This document shows positions 1 to 7,501 of a stretch of 7,501 bases of DNA, one piece after another; positions within the stretch are counted from its first letter, which is position 1, and every line of letters starts with the position of its first letter. This DNA is from a virus (lineage: Duplodnaviria > Heunggongvirae > Uroviricota > Caudoviricetes). The stretch is taken from the IMG/VR virus record IMGVR_UViG_2609460344_000017. The stretch is one strand, 5' to 3'. The notes beneath the pieces are model-generated. The model had not been told where the DNA came from. It did no database searches and worked only from the letters and a program-made list of their open reading frames with translations. A program made the position numbers and the translations under genes.

Positions 1-396
1 GCTCCCTTTCCGGCACGTCTCATTGCCGTATCACTTCCTCCCGAAAAAGCATTAATCAGTAAAACCCGACTGCTCAGCGAGAATCGTCGAAAAGGACGAG
101 TAGTTCAGGCGGAAACGCTGGAAGCAGCGGGCCATGTGCTATTGCTAACATCATTACCGGAAGATGAATATTCAGCAGAGCAAGTGGCTGATTGTTACCG
201 TCTGCGATGGCAAATTGAACTGGCTTTTAAGCGGCTCAAAAGTTTGCTGCACCTGGATGCTTTGCGTGCAAAGGAACCTGAACTCGCGAAAGCGTGGATA
301 TTTGCTAATCTACTCGCCGCATTTTTAATTGACGACATAATCCAGCCATCGCTGGATTCCCCCCCCAGAAGTGCCGGATCCGAAAAGAAGAACTAA
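1..396 (+). CDS. insL: IS4-family DDE transposase (IS186 InsL-like), C-terminal ~131 codons; 5' end cut by the window edge
   Basis: Frame 1 has no stop from base 1 to TAA at 394-396. The translation carries the IS4-family YREK signature Y-x2-R-x3-E-x6-K (YRLRWQIELAFKRLK). The C-terminus ...PRSAGSEKKN matches what I recall of InsL. Confidence 0.85.
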   Translation, partial: APFPARLIAVSLPPEKALISKTRLLSENRRKGRVVQAETLEAAGHVLLLTSLPEDEYSAEQVADCYRLRWQIELAFKRLKSLLHLDALRAKEPELAKAWIFANLLAAFLIDDIIQPSLDSPPRSAGSEKKN

Positions 397-544
397 CTCG
401 TTGTGGAGAATAACAAAAATGGTCATCTGGAGCTTACAGGTGGCCATTCGTGGGACAGTATCCCTGACAGCCTACAAAACGCAATTGAAGAACGCGAGGC
501 ATCGTCTTAACGAGGCACCGAGGCGTCGCATTCTTCAGATGGTT

Positions 545-567
545 CAACCCTTAAGTTAGCGCTTATG
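545..567. repeat. Terminal inverted repeat of IS186 (right end)
   Basis: Exact 23-mer CAACCCTTAAGTTAGCGCTTATG, 149 bp downstream of the transposase stop. The partner copy would lie outside the window. Confidence 0.7.
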
Positions 568-589
568 GGATTCTCCCCCGCCTGGTCTC

Positions 590-745
590 TTACTCCTCAG
601 GTTCGTAAGCTGTGAAGACAGCGACCTCCGTCTGGCCGGTTCGGATTCGTACCTCGCAGAGGTCTTTCCTCGTTACCAGTGCCGTCACTATGACGGTTAA
701 ACAGATGACGATCAGGGCGATTAACATCGCCTTTTGCTGCTTCAT
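590..745 (-). CDS. hokD: Hok/Gef family type I toxin (51 aa), HokD/HokC-like
   Basis: ATG at 745-743, stop at 592-590. Translation MKQQKAMLIALIVICLTVIVTALVTRKDLCEVRIRTGQTEVAVFTAYEPEE has a single transmembrane helix and the conserved RKDLCEV...TGQTEVAVF core of Hok/Gef proteins. An AAGGAGAAG ribosome-binding site lies upstream. The paralog assignment is from memory and uncertain; the family call is firm. Confidence 0.88.
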   Translation of the reverse strand: MKQQKAMLIALIVICLTVIVTALVTRKDLCEVRIRTGQTEVAVFTAYEPEE

Positions 746-802
746 AGCCTGCTTCTCCTTGCCTTTCGGCACGTAAGAGGCTAACCTACATGTGCAAAGC
801 AT
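590..802 (-). CDS. mok-like leader reading frame (70 aa) in frame with and ending at the hok stop
   Basis: In-frame ATG at 802-800, 19 codons upstream of the hok start. This matches the way chromosomal mok frames are annotated in E. coli hok loci (recalled, not searched). In this family mok translation is required for hok translation and is the target of sok. Confidence 0.55.
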   Translation of the reverse strand: MLCTCRLASYVPKGKEKQAMKQQKAMLIALIVICLTVIVTALVTRKDLCEVRIRTGQTEVAVFTAYEPEE

Positions 803-848
803 GAAATTGGCCTCAGATTAATGTTAAGCGTCTTGCCGGACGCGTAAT
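794..848 (+). ncRNA. Putative Sok antisense RNA
   Basis: On the strand opposite hok, overlapping the mok start. Candidate sigma70 promoter TTGCCT (759-764), 17-bp spacer, TAACCT (782-787), placing the start near 794. A GC hairpin GCGTC-ttgccg-GACGC lies at 828-843. Position and length are by analogy to sok genes; the 3' end is not well defined. Confidence 0.4.
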
Positions 849-921
849 GTTAACTGGGGCTTTTCTCTATCTGCCTTTTGGTGTTCATGCCTGAGGCAGA
901 TAGCCTCAAGCACCCGCAGTA

Positions 922-950
922 ATTCTAACTATCCAATAGATCAATGCCAA
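922..950 (-). promoter_or_regulatory. Candidate promoter for the hok/mok mRNA
   Basis: On the minus strand: -35 TTGGCA (reverse complement of 945-950), 17-bp spacer, -10 TAGAAT (reverse complement of 922-927). This gives a leader of about 110 nt before the mok start, typical for hok mRNAs. Confidence 0.3.
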
Positions 951-1302
951 CTTCTTTTCCTGCAACATCTCTCATCAGAAGTGACCCAAATTCATCCAAT
1001 CAGCACAAAAGAAACATTTAAAGCGTGAATGCTACCGAACGTTCATTTCAATTACATCGTTTTGATTTTTAACAGTTTTCACCTCAACAAATCAAATGGC
1101 ATTAGCATTCATCATGGAAGAAAGACTGATAAAAATGATCATTTTCAATGACTTATGATCACACCGGGTATTGCCAAGTCATTCCTTTTACGCCAGGATA
1201 CCCACAAGTGAGTAGTCGAGGAGAGTTTGCCAATTTTTGCGATATAAATTTCAATGTCCGAAGAACCATTAATTGTTAATTGATTCTGTATAAGGTATTA
1301 AC

Positions 1303-2400
1303 ATGACAATTTCATATATTCCTATTCTGAAAGCGAAACGTTCTGAGTTATCAGCTTTATCGCAGCTATCCATTGAAAAGAAATCAAAAATTTTGCCATT
1401 ACTCGAAATTGAACCAGTGCCAATTGACCCTGATTCAGGTATTGCCTTAAAGAGTTATAACGAGACTCTTATAGAGTTCGGAAAGAAAGTCTCAAAATCT
1501 TGCTCAGATATGCAAGGTGTTTATATTGATGGATTATTAATTGAAGAGCATTTTATTTCTCCTGAAGATCATTACCCTATAATAAATGCGGTTAATCAAG
1601 TTAGAGATATGGGGATAAGAGTTATTCCTGTCAGTTCACCAACTCGCCCATCTAACTATAAAAGAGCGATTGATGAATTAATGCAGAATGAAATATGCTT
1701 GAGATTAACCACGTTAGATCTGGTTAACCCACAATTAATAACGCATTACATTAATCATCTGGGAATTCCTTTATCAAATATTGATATAATTATTGACTTA
1801 AGAGATGAGTTAACCGAGGATAAAATTAATTCCGGCGAACTATATACTTTGGCAATGGGATTGATAAACAATCTGGCGCACCTCAATGAATACAGAAAAG
1901 TGATTCTTTCTGGGGGTTCATTTCCTACAGATCTCAGTGATATTTCTGTTGGTCTATATTCTCAACCTCGAATCGAGTGGATTTTATGGCAGAGTTTAAT
2001 GAATAGAAAAGAACTTGCCAGAAATGTGATTTATAGTGATTATGGAGTACAGCACCCCGACTTTAATAGGCTTTCGACGCGATTCCCTAGCGTATCTGCC
2101 AGCGTCAGATACTCTGGAGATAATGACTTTTGGGTATTTCGAGGAAGAGTAGCTAATCGCTTTGGTTATGAACAATATGGTAAACATAGTGAGGATATTC
2201 TTGCTCATCGAGAATATTCAGGGCCTACATTCTGTGCGGGAGATAGAGACATAGAATATTATGCAAACGAGTATCAAGCCTACAAAGCCAATCCCTCTGG
2301 TAACTATAAATTTGGTAGCCCAGAGGTATGGCGTAGGATTGGGCAAAACCATCACATAACTAAGGTTGTTGAGCAACTCGCCACTCTTTACGGGCTTTAA
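1303..2400 (+). CDS. Hypothetical 365-aa protein in an AT-rich island; possibly Beta-protein (PF14350) / sce7725-like, unverified
   Basis: ATG at 1303 with AAGG ribosome-binding site 7 nt upstream; uninterrupted 1098-nt ORF. AT-rich codon usage distinct from the flanks. No Walker, HxH, HEPN or other catalytic motif recognised. The N-terminus MTISYIPILKAKRSELSAL reminds me of Beta-family proteins (recollection only). Confidence 0.8.
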   Translation: MTISYIPILKAKRSELSALSQLSIEKKSKILPLLEIEPVPIDPDSGIALKSYNETLIEFGKKVSKSCSDMQGVYIDGLLIEEHFISPEDHYPIINAVNQVRDMGIRVIPVSSPTRPSNYKRAIDELMQNEICLRLTTLDLVNPQLITHYINHLGIPLSNIDIIIDLRDELTEDKINSGELYTLAMGLINNLAHLNEYRKVILSGGSFPTDLSDISVGLYSQPRIEWILWQSLMNRKELARNVIYSDYGVQHPDFNRLSTRFPSVSASVRYSGDNDFWVFRGRVANRFGYEQYGKHSEDILAHREYSGPTFCAGDRDIEYYANEYQAYKANPSGNYKFGSPEVWRRIGQNHHITKVVEQLATLYGL

Positions 2401-2938
2401 GTTTAACTCGAACAGCTTCACGAAGCTCGCCAACATCCATACTATTGGCGAGTTTTGACCATAAGACGCGTTTAGGTTTATTTTTCAAATTCTGTAGCTC
2501 CCCTACATCACTTAATAGGGAAAGCAATTCATCTTTCCAAAGAAGCATTGTTAAGGAAAGTTTGTCCACTTGTGGATTCAACTTGCTAGTTCGAATTGTT
2601 TTTAAATGGATACCTTGCCGTGCACCTTGCGTAACTTGCTTTATCCCCCACCATGATGGAACTATGCTTAAAGCATCATAAAGATGGCAATCAGAGACAA
2701 CCAAAGTTACTTTATCCATCACTGATGAGTAATGTTGCACCTGCGCTGGTAATCTGAGCAAGTTATCACTCTTGCTCTTCAACTCATAACCATGTATAAG
2801 CCCATTGATCACTGCTATATCAGCTCTGCTAGCCCCTAGATTCATCGTAAACTCATCAATGATTAGGGTGTCAGGATCTTTATGATGATCTCTCAGAATC
2901 TTGGCATGCACAGCCTTTCTTACATCAATGTCTCTCAT
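2360..2938 (-). CDS. 192-aa PD-(D/E)xK-type (RecB/restriction-like) nuclease-fold protein; possibly sce7726-like, unverified
   Basis: ATG at 2938-2936, stop at 2362-2360. Translation contains IIDEF ... SRADIAVINGLIHGYELKS, i.e. acidic residue, then hydrophobic-strand Asp, then E-x-K about 12 residues later, the classic PD-(D/E)xK arrangement. The ribosome-binding site is weak. Its 3' end overlaps the 3' end of the 365-aa gene by 41 bp. Confidence 0.75.
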   Translation of the reverse strand: MRDIDVRKAVHAKILRDHHKDPDTLIIDEFTMNLGASRADIAVINGLIHGYELKSKSDNLLRLPAQVQHYSSVMDKVTLVVSDCHLYDALSIVPSWWGIKQVTQGARQGIHLKTIRTSKLNPQVDKLSLTMLLWKDELLSLLSDVGELQNLKNKPKRVLWSKLANSMDVGELREAVRVKLKARKEWRVAQQP

Positions 2939-2970
2939 ACCATAGTTGCGCTTTCATCGACTCTCTCAAG

Positions 2971-2989
2971 CCATGATTCTATATCATGG
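2971..2989. promoter_or_regulatory. Perfect 7-bp inverted repeat CCATGAT-N5-ATCATGG upstream of the 192-aa gene (candidate operator)
   Basis: Exact palindromic arms at 2971-2977 and 2983-2989, 33-51 bp upstream of the start codon at 2938. Confidence 0.3.
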
Positions 2990-3243
2990 TTCGCATGAAT
3001 GCCATTTGATATGACCAGTGGTTAAACATTGCACAGAAAAGTGGATGTGTATTTTAACAAAAGCAATGACGGCTAACCATGTTGGTATGTCGATAAAATG
3101 TTTCAACGTAAGCATTATCTGTTCCGCCCTTTCAGACGGCCTCCTGATGTTCTGAGGGTGCAGAATCCCTCCGGTTAAGGATTTAATAAAAATCGTTTCT
3201 GATTTAAATCTTCAGTATTTAGTTGTTAGTCGGTTTATAGCCT

Positions 3244-3555
3244 TTATGCTTCGGCCTTATTTCTCAGCCATACACAAACCGGGCCATCTTCGGTGTCATG
3301 TATTGAACCAATAAACCATCCATTGCCCTCTGGTCGTTCCGGTTCCCATGCAGAAATATCAGCATCACACGCATCAAGGTCAGCACATCCTTCATCTCTG
3401 AAGCAGAGGACGTATTGAAGATTATTTTCCTCCATCCAGGCGTTAAACTCTTCCGTTGAAATATATTCCCGACCGTCACAGAATTTTTCATATTCAGGAT
3501 GCGTCCAGCAGCCATATTCATCACGTACTACTGGTATTTCTTTAATTTCATTCAT
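3244..3555 (-). CDS. Hypothetical prophage protein (103 aa, acidic, Trp/Cys-containing)
   Basis: ATG at 3555-3553 with GGGAGA ribosome-binding site 7 nt upstream. Overlaps the stop of the upstream gene by 8 bp, suggesting translational coupling. Last gene of the minus-strand early operon. Confidence 0.7.
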   Translation of the reverse strand: MNEIKEIPVVRDEYGCWTHPEYEKFCDGREYISTEEFNAWMEENNLQYVLCFRDEGCADLDACDADISAWEPERPEGNGWFIGSIHDTEDGPVCVWLRNKAEA

Positions 3556-3802
3556 TTCTGTTCTCCCACGTTTTCAGACTTTCACCACAGAACGGACAAA
3601 ATGAAACCCGAACTGGTAATTTAGAAAATTCACCGGAACGCAACATCACAAAATCAGGACCGCGAGTTAAACTCTCATTCCAGATTTTGTATATCAGCAG
3701 ACCTTTTCGCATCGTGTATTCAGCATCATGCTCAAGGGACTTTGCCAGTGCTGCACATGGTTCTATCTTGTTGCCATTAACCTGGCATTTTGATTCACTC
3801 AC
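3548..3802 (-). CDS. Hypothetical prophage protein (84 aa) with one CPFC motif
   Basis: GTG start at 3802-3800 preceded by a strong GAGGAGG ribosome-binding site at 7 nt. The start overlaps the TGA stop of the upstream gene (GTGA). Confidence 0.65.
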   Translation of the reverse strand: MSESKCQVNGNKIEPCAALAKSLEHDAEYTMRKGLLIYKIWNESLTRGPDFVMLRSGEFSKLPVRVSFCPFCGESLKTWENRNE

Positions 3803-4221
3803 CGCACCACCTCCTCAAAATTCCCCTGATAAAACGCCAGTACGCGCTGCATAACTTCGCTCTTCCGGCACTCGAGACAGATTATGTTCAGACGCCTGTC
3901 GTAGCGGCGTATTTCGCCATCTGGTAATGACCAGATAAGGTCCGGATCAACCGCAGATGGTTTCTTCAGCTTTGCCCTTGAGAGTTTTTTGCGGGCATTT
4001 TGCCAGTCTTTACGAGCCTGTTCAGACGGGAATAACCCGTAGCCAGAATTGTATACATCGCCACTGGCAACCAGCTCTCTGGCCAGAACGCTCATCAGAT
4101 ATCTTGTTGCCCCAGTTTTAGTTTCCAGTTGTCGTAACGTCTCGCGCCCACTCTGGCGTACGAGTTCAACAACCTGCCCTTTAATTTTTTCCCGCTCTTC
4201 TTGTGTAAAAACTTTTGCCAC
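3799..4221 (-). CDS. Hypothetical prophage protein (140 aa, basic)
   Basis: GTG start at 4221-4219 preceded by AGGAGG at 4 nt. Lies 37 bp downstream of the replication gene stop; in an operon with the two following genes. Confidence 0.65.
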   Translation of the reverse strand: MAKVFTQEEREKIKGQVVELVRQSGRETLRQLETKTGATRYLMSVLARELVASGDVYNSGYGLFPSEQARKDWQNARKKLSRAKLKKPSAVDPDLIWSLPDGEIRRYDRRLNIICLECRKSEVMQRVLAFYQGNFEEVVR

Positions 4222-4258
4222 AAGCCCTCCTGAAAATTACCCCATGACCTGAAATCTG

Positions 4259-5329
4259 TTACCCTCTGAATCCCGGCGGAATTTCGGTGTCCGGTTCAGA
4301 AATATGATTAACACAACGCTGGTTGTTCGTGCCGCTTACCGGGAGCAACCAGGGGTTTTCAAAATTCCGGTCCGGTCCAAAAAACGTCGTCGCTCGCTGA
4401 ACAAATTCCGTTCCCGTTTTCCCGGTAGCCGCCAAGTATCTTGCGTAACGCCTCACGCCATCCAGCATGGCCTCTGGTGGCACCCCCTCGCGTAATCTGG
4501 CCTTCCAGGCACTGAAAGCGGATTTCTTCGGGTTTGCCCCAGCACGCAACGGGTACTCCCGCCAGACCTGTTCGAACACATCCGGATAATCCACTCGTCC
4601 CACAGACTGCCCGGTGTTTTCCGGGACTACCCGATCGGCTTCCCGCTGAATGGCGGAATCGGCTTCGGGCTGCTGCAGTTGGTGTGATTGCTCCGGCCTT
4701 GCGGTCATCACCTGCTGCACAGCGCCCGAATCGGCTTTCAGCGCATACGCTGAATCGGCTTCCGGTGTCGTGCCTGCTGGCTGACCAAGATTGACGGTCT
4801 GAACATCCCCTGCCTGGTTCGTGGCGTTTTTTACGCCATGGACCATAGTGTTTTGATCTTCTTGATCTGTATCTTTATCTGTATCTTTATCTGTCGTGAC
4901 TCGTCGTGACATGTGCGTGACATTTCGTGACGCGCCGTGACAATCGCCATTTTGTTCCCGCTTTCTTTCCCTCTCTCGCTGCGCCCTCTTGCGCTCTGCA
5001 GGAGATTTTGCGGTTTGCGAAATATTGCCGTTGTCCTCTTTAAGCACCTGGCGTTTTTCCCATCCAGTGATTAAATCACCATCAAGTACCCGCCCCTGCA
5101 TCGTCTGCAAAATTGAATCAATTACCTCTTCTGTCACGTCGAGCGCACTTGCCAAATCTTCTGTCGTGACATCAATGTGACCTCGCGTGACATTTCGTGA
5201 CGCGCTCACCAGGAGGTGGATATACACTGCCATCACTGTTGCAATTGGCTGCCCTGACACCCTGGCAATTGTTCGCCACTTAGGGTCATTTGGCATGTCA
5301 TGCCATAATCTGAGCCAGGCGTTAGCCAT
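4259..5329 (-). CDS. Phage replication initiation / replisome-organizer protein (lambda O-like architecture), 356 aa
   Basis: ATG at 5329-5327 preceded by AGAGGTGA; an alternative in-frame GTG is at 5335. N-terminal domain, a charged low-complexity linker (TDKDTDKDTDQED, ERKRAQRERERKRE) and a C-terminal domain ending ...FEQVWREYP...KKSAFSAWKARL, which resembles conserved phage replication-protein C-termini. Iteron arrays sit inside the gene. Confidence 0.8.
   Translation of the reverse strand: MANAWLRLWHDMPNDPKWRTIARVSGQPIATVMAVYIHLLVSASRNVTRGHIDVTTEDLASALDVTEEVIDSILQTMQGRVLDGDLITGWEKRQVLKEDNGNISQTAKSPAERKRAQRERERKREQNGDCHGASRNVTHMSRRVTTDKDTDKDTDQEDQNTMVHGVKNATNQAGDVQTVNLGQPAGTTPEADSAYALKADSGAVQQVMTARPEQSHQLQQPEADSAIQREADRVVPENTGQSVGRVDYPDVFEQVWREYPLRAGANPKKSAFSAWKARLREGVPPEAMLDGVRRYARYLAATGKTGTEFVQRATTFFGPDRNFENPWLLPVSGTNNQRCVNHISEPDTEIPPGFRG
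4864..4894. repeat. AT-rich tandem repeat (GTATCTTTATCT x2 plus partial copies) adjacent to the iterons
   Basis: Exact 12-mer at 4869-4880 and 4881-4892. Encodes the TDKDTDKD linker on the minus strand. Candidate DNA-unwinding element. Confidence 0.5.
4891..4941. repeat. Iteron array 1: five tandem 10/11-bp repeats with core CGTGAC (candidate ori)
   Basis: CGTGAC at 4895, 4905, 4916, 4926 and 4936, giving a helical-turn spacing of 10-11 bp, inside the replication gene. Confidence 0.6.
5161..5201. repeat. Iteron array 2: four 10/11-bp repeats with core (C/T)GTGAC
   Basis: Cores at 5165, 5176, 5186 and 5196, plus an inverted copy GTCACG at 5133-5138. Shares exact segments CTGTCGTGAC and CATTTCGTGACGCGC with array 1. 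Confidence 0.5.
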
Positions 5330-5400
5330 ACTCACCTCTTTTGATACCGAATCTTTTTACTCACAAATTGCCGGAAGTGATCCGGTATGAATATTGCGAG

Positions 5401-5826
5401 TCAATGCACAGCCACAATATTTCCTGCAGGGCCACCACGATTCATCTGGTTGAAACCAGCGATCGCCACTGCGACAAAATCATCAGCGTCTCTCACCAGT
5501 CGTTCCCGCGTCTCCACCAGCTCCCGAAAATAAGCTGAACTGTGGCTGCGCATTCTGGCCACCAGCAAAGGTGGCATTGCCTTTTCGATCGCTGGTAACA
5601 ACGCCTGAATTTTTTCAACTGCATCAGGGGTGTCTTTCTCTACCCAGCGGAAAATTTTCTGGGTATTGCGAGCCAGGGCTTCCGGATGGCTGTCGTCATA
5701 CAGTTCTGGGAACGTCATACCCAACTCAAAATAAGCCTGGGTTATTCCAGCTGCTGGAACTTTCTCACCATCAGGATATGCCCAGGCATTCATCGCCATG
5801 CGGATGTGCTCATGTTTGATTTTCAT
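5401..5826 (-). CDS. ydaT: YdaT-like protein (Rac prophage ydaT homolog), 141 aa
   Basis: ATG at 5826-5824 with AAGAGG ribosome-binding site. Size, sequence (MKIKHEHIRMAMNAWAYPDGEK...) and position immediately downstream of a ydaS-like gene match Rac prophage YdaT as I recall it. Confidence 0.8.
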   Translation of the reverse strand: MKIKHEHIRMAMNAWAYPDGEKVPAAGITQAYFELGMTFPELYDDSHPEALARNTQKIFRWVEKDTPDAVEKIQALLPAIEKAMPPLLVARMRSHSSAYFRELVETRERLVRDADDFVAVAIAGFNQMNRGGPAGNIVAVH

Positions 5827-6133
5827 GAATCATTTGCCTCTTGATGCTTCGGGTATGATCGTTTTCGTCATTTGGTTGCTTCATCGACATATTCTGCGAA
5901 TAACATGACGAGCGTCGTAAGTATGTCCAATCAACATCAGGACGAAGTTCTTCACACAGGACACCACCTTTTGTTGCTCGTTCAATCGCAGGACATCTCT
6001 CAGCAGGCAACTGACGTACACCTTTGATCCATTGATTTACGCTTGGAGGAGATACACCTAAAAGCCTAGCCATTGCTGATTGCCCACCGACAACAGCACA
6101 AGCTCGTTTGAATGAATAGTTATCTTTTTTCAT
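5810..6133 (-). CDS. ydaS: YdaS-like Cro-type helix-turn-helix protein, 107 aa
   Basis: Preferred start is ATG at 6133-6131 with GGAG about 10 nt upstream; the ORF track's upstream start at 6154 lacks a ribosome-binding site. Helix-turn-helix region AMARLLGVSPPSVNQWIKG. Divergent from the repressor gene. Overlaps the ydaT-like start by 17 bp. Confidence 0.8.
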   Translation of the reverse strand: MKKDNYSFKRACAVVGGQSAMARLLGVSPPSVNQWIKGVRQLPAERCPAIERATKGGVLCEELRPDVDWTYLRRSSCYSQNMSMKQPNDENDHTRSIKRQMIHENQT

Positions 6134-6160
6134 CGAATGAACTCCAAAAAACACACAATA

Positions 6161-6228
6161 ATATTAGGCTTAGCCTAATGCGATTGTCAATAGGCTATGC
6201 CTAACGCTTCGAGAGTAGGGATTGCCTA
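6161..6228. promoter_or_regulatory. OR-like tripartite operator with a PR-like promoter for ydaS-ydaT, between the divergent racR-like and ydaS-like genes
   Basis: Three inverted repeats of the form TAGGC-N3-GCCTA: 6164-6178 (TTAGGC-TTA-GCCTAA, perfect), 6191-6203 (perfect 5-bp arms) and 6216-6228 (4 of 5). Centres are 25-26 bp apart. A minus-strand promoter, -35 TTGACA (reverse complement of 6185-6190) and -10 TAATAT (reverse complement of 6161-6166), overlaps site 1. Confidence 0.55.
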
Positions 6229-6257
6229 ACGCGATGCGCATAGGAGACTATTAAGCA

Positions 6258-6734
6258 ATGCTTAGTGGTAAAGACTTAGGCCGAGCGATAGAGCAGGCCA
6301 TCAACAAAAAAATTGCATCAGGAGCCGTCAAATCAAAGGCGGAAATCGCACGTCATTTCAAAGTCCAACCACCATCAATCCATGACTGGATTAAGAAAGG
6401 TTCGATAAGTAAAGACAAACTTCCAGAACTATGGCGTTTCTTTTCTGATGTGGTTGGTCCAGAGCATTGGGGGCTTAACGAATACCCCATACCAACCCCA
6501 TCCACTTCAGATACAAAAAGTGAACTTTTAGACATAAACAGCCTTTATCAAGCCGCCTCTGATGAAAAAAGAGCAATTGTGGCTTTCCTCTTATCTGGAA
6601 ATGCTACGGAGCCTAGTTGGGTTGATCATGACGTTCGCGCCTACATTGCCGCAATGGAAATGAAGGTAGCTAACTATCTGAAAAATCAAGAATCAAAACG
6701 GAAAAGCCAGAACATCACCAAGACAGGAACTTAA
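6258..6734 (+). CDS. racR: RacR-like prophage repressor (XRE-type helix-turn-helix), 158 aa
   Basis: ATG at 6258 with TAGGAGA ribosome-binding site 10 nt upstream. Helix-turn-helix region SKAEIARHFKVQPPSIHDWIKKG. Divergent from ydaS-ydaT, as in the Rac immunity region. Confidence 0.8.
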   Translation: MLSGKDLGRAIEQAINKKIASGAVKSKAEIARHFKVQPPSIHDWIKKGSISKDKLPELWRFFSDVVGPEHWGLNEYPIPTPSTSDTKSELLDINSLYQAASDEKRAIVAFLLSGNATEPSWVDHDVRAYIAAMEMKVANYLKNQESKRKSQNITKTGT

Positions 6735-6748
6735 ACTTATATGGTCCG

Positions 6749-6778
6749 ACGGGAAATTCCTAGTTCCCGTTAGTTAAC
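6749..6778 (+). terminator. Candidate intrinsic terminator after the racR-like gene
   Basis: Perfect 7-bp stem ACGGGAA / TTCCCGT (6749-6755 and 6764-6770) with an 8-nt loop, followed by TAGTTAACTC. The tail is only moderately U-rich. Confidence 0.35.
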
Positions 6779-6830
6779 TCCTACTACCTCTCCCACAAAC
6801 CATCACCTATTAGGTCGCACCCAAATCATT

Positions 6831-6871
6831 AGGCATAGCCTATTGACAAGCAATTAGGCATTTCCTATAGT
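6831..6871 (+). promoter_or_regulatory. OL/PL-like element: consensus sigma70 promoter overlapped by two operator repeats
   Basis: -35 TTGACA (6843-6848), 17-bp spacer, -10 TATAGT (6866-6871). Operator-type repeats TAGGC-ATA-GCCTA (6831-6843) and TAGGC-ATT-TCCTA (6855-6867) overlap the -35 and spacer/-10. Confidence 0.5.
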
Positions 6872-7052
6872 TTTCCCATACCAACCCATCCCGTCCCACA
6901 CAATACAGGGCAATACCTAGAGTTACCCGGCAGTGGTCAGGGATTAAGTAGCCAGCCCGAGGCGTATGAACATGACGGCGGGAACACTTTGTATAACAGC
7001 GCAGCAGGTTTTTAGTTCCGCTACCCCAGCGTTAAGGGGAAATGAGGTCAGC

Positions 7053-7205
7053 ATGGATACTATCGAGCTTGGCAACAACGAATCTCTGGTATGTGGCGTG
7101 TTTCCCAATCAGGACGGCACGTTTACCGCGATGACGTATACCAAAAGTAAAACGTTTAAAACCGAAGCTGCCGCGCATCGCTGGTTAGCCAGAAACGCTA
7201 ACTGA
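7053..7205 (+). CDS. Small prophage protein (50 aa), YdaF-like by position
   Basis: ATG at 7053 with GAGG ribosome-binding site 5 nt upstream; stop at 7203-7205. Lies downstream of the PL-like promoter on the same strand as racR. An in-frame ATG at 6966 would give 79 aa but has a poorly spaced ribosome-binding site. Confidence 0.5.
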   Translation: MDTIELGNNESLVCGVFPNQDGTFTAMTYTKSKTFKTEAAAHRWLARNAN

Positions 7206-7501
7206 TTAGCGCCAGTAAAAACAGGTTTCCACAGGTTAATTTACCCTGAAAAGTCAGGGCATAACACGAAAGCGCACGGCGAGATCCCTTTGCATATAAG
7301 TCTTGTCGTTAAATTTCTTCGACCGTGCGCTTCTGGTTGTGGCAATCCGCGAAATGGCGCGGCGGTAAGTATGGCGGGGGTATTTCTTCCCCCGTTGAGG
7401 ACACCGGGTTGTCAGGGTGACCATACGCTTAAGTGACAACCCCGCTGCAACGCCCTCTGTTATCAATTTTCTGGTGACGTTTGGCGGTATCAGTTTTACT
7501 C

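Follow-up and report, generated by a model that had tools for sequence, protein, structure and literature searches.

An IS186 insertion in the post-stop hairpin of a prophage hokD/sok locus separates the toxin gene from its predicted 3′ regulatory element

Introduction

Can a hok/sok locus still act as a killing module when its toxin frame and antisense gene are intact and an insertion sequence begins 22 bp after the toxin stop codon? The question is raised by the window, the whole stretch of 7,501 nucleotides that was analysed here, which belongs to a Caudoviricetes record (IMGVR_UViG_2609460344_000017). In the hok/sok system of plasmid R1, the full-length mRNA is locked by a tac/fbi stem in a stable and untranslatable form, and slow trimming of its 3′ end yields a truncated RNA that refolds and then either is translated or binds Sok and is cleaved by RNase III (PMC9841398). 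The sequence that follows the hok stop codon is the part of the locus to which the question is directed.

Toxin, antisense RNA and leader sequences

The hok gene (745..590, minus strand) was found in the list of open reading frames as an intact gene for a HokD/RelF-type toxin of 51 amino acids, and its product matched the whole Pfam profile HOK_GEF (PF01848) at 82.9 bits against a cut-off of 22. Its DNA was identical to the gene annotated as hokD (WP_000813254.1) in an IS-free allele from strain ST866 (L001). The mok frame (802..590, minus strand; 70 amino acids) overlaps hok, is intact and ends together with hok at the TAA stop codon (592-590, minus strand), a layout that is also found in mokC/hokC of K-12. 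The hok mRNA leader (915..740, minus strand) was found to contain the tac element (915-904) followed by the metastable hairpin, the ucb element and the mok Shine-Dalgarno sequence. It matched the Rfam model RF01794 at 119.8 bits (gathering score 59; E = 2.3e-28), and the 5′ end of the mRNA was placed at 915 because the match covers the full model (positions 1-157 of 157). A promoter-like site, TTGGCA-17-TAGAAT (950..922, minus strand; 10/12 in the consensus scan), ends 7 nt upstream of this 5′ end.

A putative gene for the Sok antisense RNA of about 77 nt (794-870, plus strand) was located by alignment to the annotated sokC of K-12. It was preceded by a presumed promoter with a -35 hexamer TTGCCT (759-764) and a -10 hexamer TAACCT (782-787) on the plus strand, which was recognised from the hexamers and was not listed in the promoter scan. 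The Sok region was identical between the window and the IS-free allele in the sequence alignment. The intact state of the coding and antisense parts suggests that the insertion beside them is recent.

Relative to K-12 hokC/sokC, the leader/Sok region contained an insert of 18 nt (827-844; ACGCGTCCGGCAAGACGC on the hok-sense strand), by which the predicted Sok RNA is lengthened to about 77 nt.

The IS186 end and its target

The first 567 bp of the window (1..567, plus strand) were found to be the right-hand end of IS186, with the transposase C-terminus reading towards hok and its open reading frame ending at 396. The IS186 assignment (IS4 family) was based on the presence of the terminal repeat, identity to the reference and a DDE transposase. 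The terminal inverted repeat of 23 bp, CATAAGCGCTAACTTAAGGGTTG, lies at 545-567 (minus strand) with 0 mismatches, and 200 shuffles with up to 3 mismatches allowed gave 0 matches, 0 being expected by chance. Bases 1-567 matched the end of K-12 IS186A at 566/567 positions, the C-terminal part of a DDE_Tnp_1 domain was found in their translation (56.7 bits), and an alignment with three other IS186-hok junctions agreed with the assignment. The spacer between the hok stop codon (590-592) and the repeat is exactly 22 bp (568-589). The first-pass annotation had reported this repeat, this spacing and intact hok and mok frames from the letters of the window, and all of its coordinates were found to be correct.

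The sole mismatch to IS186A is at position 359, in the C-terminal region of the transposase and immediately before a run of C nucleotides (361-366). The change is presumably Phe to Ser.

The spacer is a remnant of 22 nt of the hok 3′ UTR (568..589, minus strand). Compared with the hairpin GGCGGGGGAGAAUCCCUCGCC of the IS-free allele, it was found to have retained no more than the 5′ arm (582-575, GGCGGGGG) with the loop and the two nucleotides CC (569-568) with which the 3′ arm begins. Beyond these the 3′ arm gives way to the IS186 repeat, and the GC-rich terminal stem-loop is no longer whole. The preferred target of IS186 is GGGG(N6/N7)CCCC, a consensus available here as quoted in PMC6925257. 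The pre-insertion site, AGGGATTCTCCCCC, has one mismatch to GGGG-N6-CCCC, and 566-579 was the only match in the window with at most one mismatch to this pattern. Judged from the aligned sequences, IS186 interrupts the GC-rich hairpin downstream of the hok stop codon at its loop, and it lies at this exact position because the hairpin resembles the target of the element. A presumed copy of the target-site duplication of 10 bp, GGATTCTCCC (568..577, no strand assigned), was inferred from the junction of a prophage hokD locus (L002). There the junction is identical and GGATTCTCCC flanks a complete IS186 of 1337 bp on both sides.

A terminator-like hairpin, GCCGGAAAGGGAGCUCCGGC followed by U6, was also found inside IS186 on the hok-sense strand (1..16, minus strand), where it is cut by the window edge. 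It is complete in L002 (3616-3597, minus strand; consensus scan, with an offset of 3600 nt to the window), and transcripts that read through from hok may end at it.

Comparison with the uninterrupted allele

The IS-free allele L001 differs from positions 568-1000 of the window at 1 of 433 nt. It lies in the same Rac-like prophage context, with hokD, genes for a Beta-family protein, a sce7726-family protein and a replisome organiser, and YdaT. Its hok mRNA extends 94 nt past the stop codon. Read in the hok sense, this tail contains first the GC-rich hairpin GGCGGGGGAGAAUCCCUCGCC (9-29 nt from the stop codon), then the fbi element CCUCAACGCACCC at 49-61 nt (mRNA nt 375-387) and finally an intrinsic terminator that ends at +94. 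When the RNA of 420 nt was folded, nt 1-12 (GGGUGCUUGAGG) were found to pair with nt 375-387 at a probability of 0.97-1.0, which is the tac/fbi pairing. The fbi element is absent from the 22-nt remnant, and the window locus is therefore a disrupted member of the hok/sok kind. In folded window transcripts with 3′ ends at 348-915 nt, the 5′ end was found to pair with nt 19-29 (the metastable hairpin) or with nt 54-60 (the tac/ucb 'open' fold), and its predicted pairing probability downstream of the stop codon was mostly below 0.3.

Two further candidates were examined and rejected. For a substitute fbi element in IS186, folding with twelve 3′ ends gave no stable pairing of the 5′ end to the IS sequence (567 bp in the window). 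For an intrinsic terminator some 200 nt downstream of the stop codon, as described in the gef literature, the candidate at 400-470 folded no better than shuffles (z = -0.75). The consensus scan found no terminator on the hok-sense strand within the window.

The order of parts is shared with plasmid R1 hok/sok, in which the 5′ tac element is followed by ucb, mok/hok, a GC hairpin after the stop codon, fbi and the terminator, and 5′-3′ pairing was predicted in an R1-like locus as well as in the IS-free allele. The terminal stem of the R1-like locus is a GC hairpin 11 nt after the stop codon, the counterpart of the hairpin that is split in the window. With its sequence GGGC-GCAG-GCCC, the hairpin of R1 lies outside the target pattern of IS186. 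R1 is uninterrupted and mediates post-segregational killing, whereas the window has a split hairpin and a displaced fbi.

These comparisons bear out the earlier proposal that a 3′ regulatory element had been lost from hok. The fbi element of the IS-free allele, with which a comparison had been recommended, lies at 49-61 nt, beyond the insertion point, and hairpin, fbi and terminator are all severed from hok. The native 3′ end, which might have been within the remaining 22 bp, is instead at +94. The K-12 precedent that had been invoked also held, IS186A being found in hokC at the homologous nucleotide and published accounts treating the K-12 hok loci as put out of action by insertion sequences (PMC2654758, PMC3562002). 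The reading of the first-pass annotation, a locus that is likely inactive or deregulated, is thus supported, and 'silent' would be too strong a word because K-12 gef/hokC with the same insertion was reported to be transcribed and antisense-regulated (PMC3562002).

Other IS186 insertions at hok genes

Seven further hok loci were found to carry IS186 at the same point, in one or the other orientation and as a complete element of 1337-1339 bp. In K-12 hokC, the element lies in the orientation of the window with the duplication GGATCACTCC, whereas in K-12 hokE it lies in the opposite orientation, 21 nt after the stop codon, with the duplication GGAGTAATCC. The junction of L002, with the duplication GGATTCTCCC, is 100% identical to that of the window over 200 nt. 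The remaining loci are another prophage hok (L003, GGATTTCTCC), a hok gene between cysH and cas3 (L006, GGTTTTACCC), a hok gene of a P1-like plasmid (L007, GGATCTCTCC) and the same hokD allele as in the window, which contains IS186 in the opposite orientation (L009, GGGATTCTCCC). The duplication is 10 bp in six of these loci and 11 bp in L009. The target GGGG(N6/N7)CCCC was matched perfectly in K-12 hokC, K-12 hokE, L003, L006 and L007. An fbi element of 12-13 nt was found beyond the IS in 6/6 pre-insertion alleles that were rebuilt and folded (K-12 hokE being left out), and fbi and terminator are displaced by 1.34 kb in the sister loci and are not deleted.

Because the duplication sequences differ, both orientations occur and two duplication lengths are present, the junctions show the insertions to be independent events at a hot spot and not one inherited event. 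A single ancestral insertion spread by recombination was considered and rejected, since each locus has its own duplication and the same allele carries the element in both orientations, with duplications of 10 bp and 11 bp. Among 5,426 complete E. coli genomes, the junction was found in the orientation of the window in 820 and in the opposite orientation in 940, and an uninterrupted HokD-type tail was found in 4,558.

K-12 hokC (gef)/sokC with IS186A is closely similar to the window. The element has the same orientation and lies at exactly the homologous nucleotide, 22 nt beyond TAA; hok and mok are intact and fbi lies beyond the IS. The duplication of 10 bp in hokC is centred on the hairpin loop. 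The two loci differ in that hokC is chromosomal, between dnaJ and nhaA, whereas the window locus is in a Rac-like prophage, and in that the window has a HokD/RelF-type toxin and a leader 18 nt longer. The target hairpin of the window has one mismatch to GGGG-N6-CCCC, whereas that of hokC is perfect. K-12 hokE/sokE likewise carries its element, IS186B, in the loop of the post-stop hairpin, with a 10-bp duplication (GGAGTAATCC), but the orientation of the IS is opposite, the distance is 21 nt from a TAG stop codon and the Hok protein is a more distant paralogue. The event in the window is of the same kind as those already described for K-12 hokC and hokE, real but ordinary.

Outside hok genes, IS186 at lon also uses a site of the GGGG(N6/7)CCCC type, recurrently and in both orientations, with inactivation of the neighbouring function (PMC6925257, PMC11251521). 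The target at lon is in a promoter, whereas in the window the insertion went into a structural element of a toxin mRNA, at its 3′ end.

The hok stem-loop might not be just another of the many sites that fit the IS186 target by chance, and the recurrent fixation of IS186 there might reflect an advantage to the host from switching the toxin off, especially in incoming prophage or plasmid copies, an idea that is regarded as speculative and rather improbable. It is based on at least 8 independent events in which IS186 entered at the same nucleotide, in one orientation or the other, across hundreds of genomes. If true, IS186 would be a general and possibly reversible silencer of the hok toxin family.

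The transposase genes of IS186 beside hokD in L002 (2886-3997) and L009 (1934-3045) are annotated as frameshifted pseudogenes, and some of the hok-adjacent copies may be decaying or immobile. K-12 contains three copies of IS186 in total. In K-12 MG1655, two copies (IS186A and IS186B; L004 and L005) are in hok terminal hairpins, those of hokC and hokE.

Probable consequences for the hok mRNA

The favoured reading, given a probability of about 0.7, is that IS186 transposed into the hairpin of a complete HokD-type locus in a Rac-like lambdoid prophage and that the inert mRNA reservoir and delayed killing were lost. For its anatomy, insertion site, lost fbi pairing and recurrence, this reading draws on the observations given above; the fate of the RNA and the loss of killing are deduced as follows. 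A simple insertion would have left GGATTCTCCC on both sides of the IS, followed by ...CTCGCCACCTCTGATG...CCTCAACGCACCC and then the terminator. The insertion destroys the hairpin, whose R1 counterpart serves as the terminal stem by which the processed, active hok mRNA is protected. It would also have moved fbi, which normally pairs with the 5′ end to give a stable, closed and untranslatable message, 1.34 kb from the reading frames, and the native terminator would likewise have been moved away. Transcripts from the hok promoter would enter IS186 antisense to the transposase gene. With the closed 5′-3′ structure unavailable, their 5′ end would pair locally, in the metastable or the tac/ucb 'open' fold, and the open RNA would be bound promptly by Sok and degraded, or degraded from its unprotected 3′ end. 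No long-lived pool of inert mRNA would then be present, and delayed Sok-dependent killing would be lost. Such a loss is expected because two elements, each needed for normal function, and the terminator have been removed.

Published observations on related loci are available. In R1, the truncated mRNA is no longer toxic and vanishes when C-G pairs of its terminal stem are broken by 19 substitutions (PMC9841398). In K-12, IS186 is thought to disrupt the fbi element of hokC (PMC3562002), a view for which PMC2654758 cites Pedersen and Gerdes 1999. Transcription of K-12 gef with IS186 reportedly persists, the transcript ending within the IS and being under antisense control (PMC3562002). The IS-free chromosomal loci hokA, hokB and hokC did not give post-segregational killing (bioRxiv 10.1101/2025.08.07.668861), and the IS-free prophage allele may never have been a classical killer because these IS-free loci failed too.

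It is possible, though unlikely, that the locus is deregulated and not dead, with an open and translatable mRNA that is checked only by continuous Sok, so that loss of Sok would lead to immediate Hok and to killing or arrest without delay. The predicted fold of the IS-truncated RNA, in which the 5′ end is in the tac/ucb or metastable form and not closed, agrees with such a state, as do the hok, mok, promoter and sok regions, which are unchanged relative to the IS-free allele, and the report of a transcribed and Sof-regulated K-12 gef with IS186 (PMC3562002). However, destabilising the terminal stem is by itself enough in R1 to eliminate the active mRNA along with its toxicity, even when Sok is absent (PMC9841398), and this stem is split in the window. 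An RNA that is bound at once by Sok should also be cleared quickly, and the insertion is tolerated by about 15-17% of complete E. coli genomes per orientation, which fits a harmless state.

It is less probable still that the junction is not a simple insertion and was formed by recombination between IS186 copies (deletion or inversion) or by assembly of repeats, the hok tail being absent or elsewhere. The left IS end and the second duplication copy of this IS186 lie outside the window, which begins inside the element, and outside L008, a near-identical IMG/VR contig (99.97% over 290-7501) that likewise ends inside IS186. A pattern search for the left IS end of the locus in one genome per species gave no match, and the sole match among viral contigs was L008. 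Room for such an origin is left by the edges of the window and of L008 inside IS186 and by the result that no complete E. coli genome of the collection contained IS186 in the exact prophage context of the window. Against it, the 200 nt of the junction are 100% identical to L002, in which a complete IS186 and the 10-bp duplication are followed by the hok tail, and the same junction was obtained in two independent assemblies. The fbi element is no longer beside hok in either case.

That the locus works normally, by transcription that crosses all of IS186, reaches the fbi and terminator beyond it and yields a long RNA that closes as usual, is very improbable even though nt 1-12 pair with the displaced CCUCAACGCACCC in the minimum-energy fold of the 1767-nt RNA of L002 with its complete IS, since 1.34 kb of untranslated antisense RNA would be required, the terminator-like hairpin with its U6 tail lies on the same strand inside IS186, the K-12 gef mRNA was reported to end within the IS (PMC3562002), and the terminal stem of the processed form would stay split, with 3′ processing having to cross the IS.

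Under the favoured reading of lost reservoir and lost delayed killing, an intact hokD/mok/sok set with IS186 21-22 nt after the stop codon should not be counted in annotation as a working toxin-antitoxin or phage-defence module; such junctions are present in about 1 in 6 complete E. coli genomes per orientation. A mechanistic reason is also given for IS elements of K-12 that are 'close to but not in' hok genes. They would lie near and not in hok because IS186 has as a target site the very hairpin by which the active hok mRNA is protected. Beyond the annotation and this positional reason, no new biology is added.

Genes adjoining hok

Two convergent genes near hok, at 1303-2400 (plus strand) and 2360-2938 (minus strand), were found to overlap by 41 bp. 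One of them encodes a Beta_protein that matched PF14350 at 178 bits and the PADLOC model PD-Lambda-2_C at 140 bits, and the other a sce7726-family protein that matched the PADLOC model 'cll' at 97.7 bits. The Beta_protein and sce7726-family genes may be a prophage-borne anti-phage pair.

The slot upstream of hok, up to the replication genes, was found at 950-3240 in the window, 4692-6842 in L002, 3828-6138 in L003 and 3947-6201 in L009. It contained the Beta/sce7726 genes in the window, genes for three hypothetical proteins in L002, for a nucleoid-associated and a hypothetical protein in L003, and for SLATT and SMODS nucleotidyltransferase proteins in L009. The hok gene apparently lies at one border of a slot for variable cargo or defence genes.

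At 4860-4941 and 5163-5204, inside the gene for the replisome organiser (4259..5335, minus strand), CGTGAC-type repeats were found in clusters together with three 12-mers in tandem (TCTTGATCTGTA), and these repeats look like the origin iterons of a lambdoid O-type gene.
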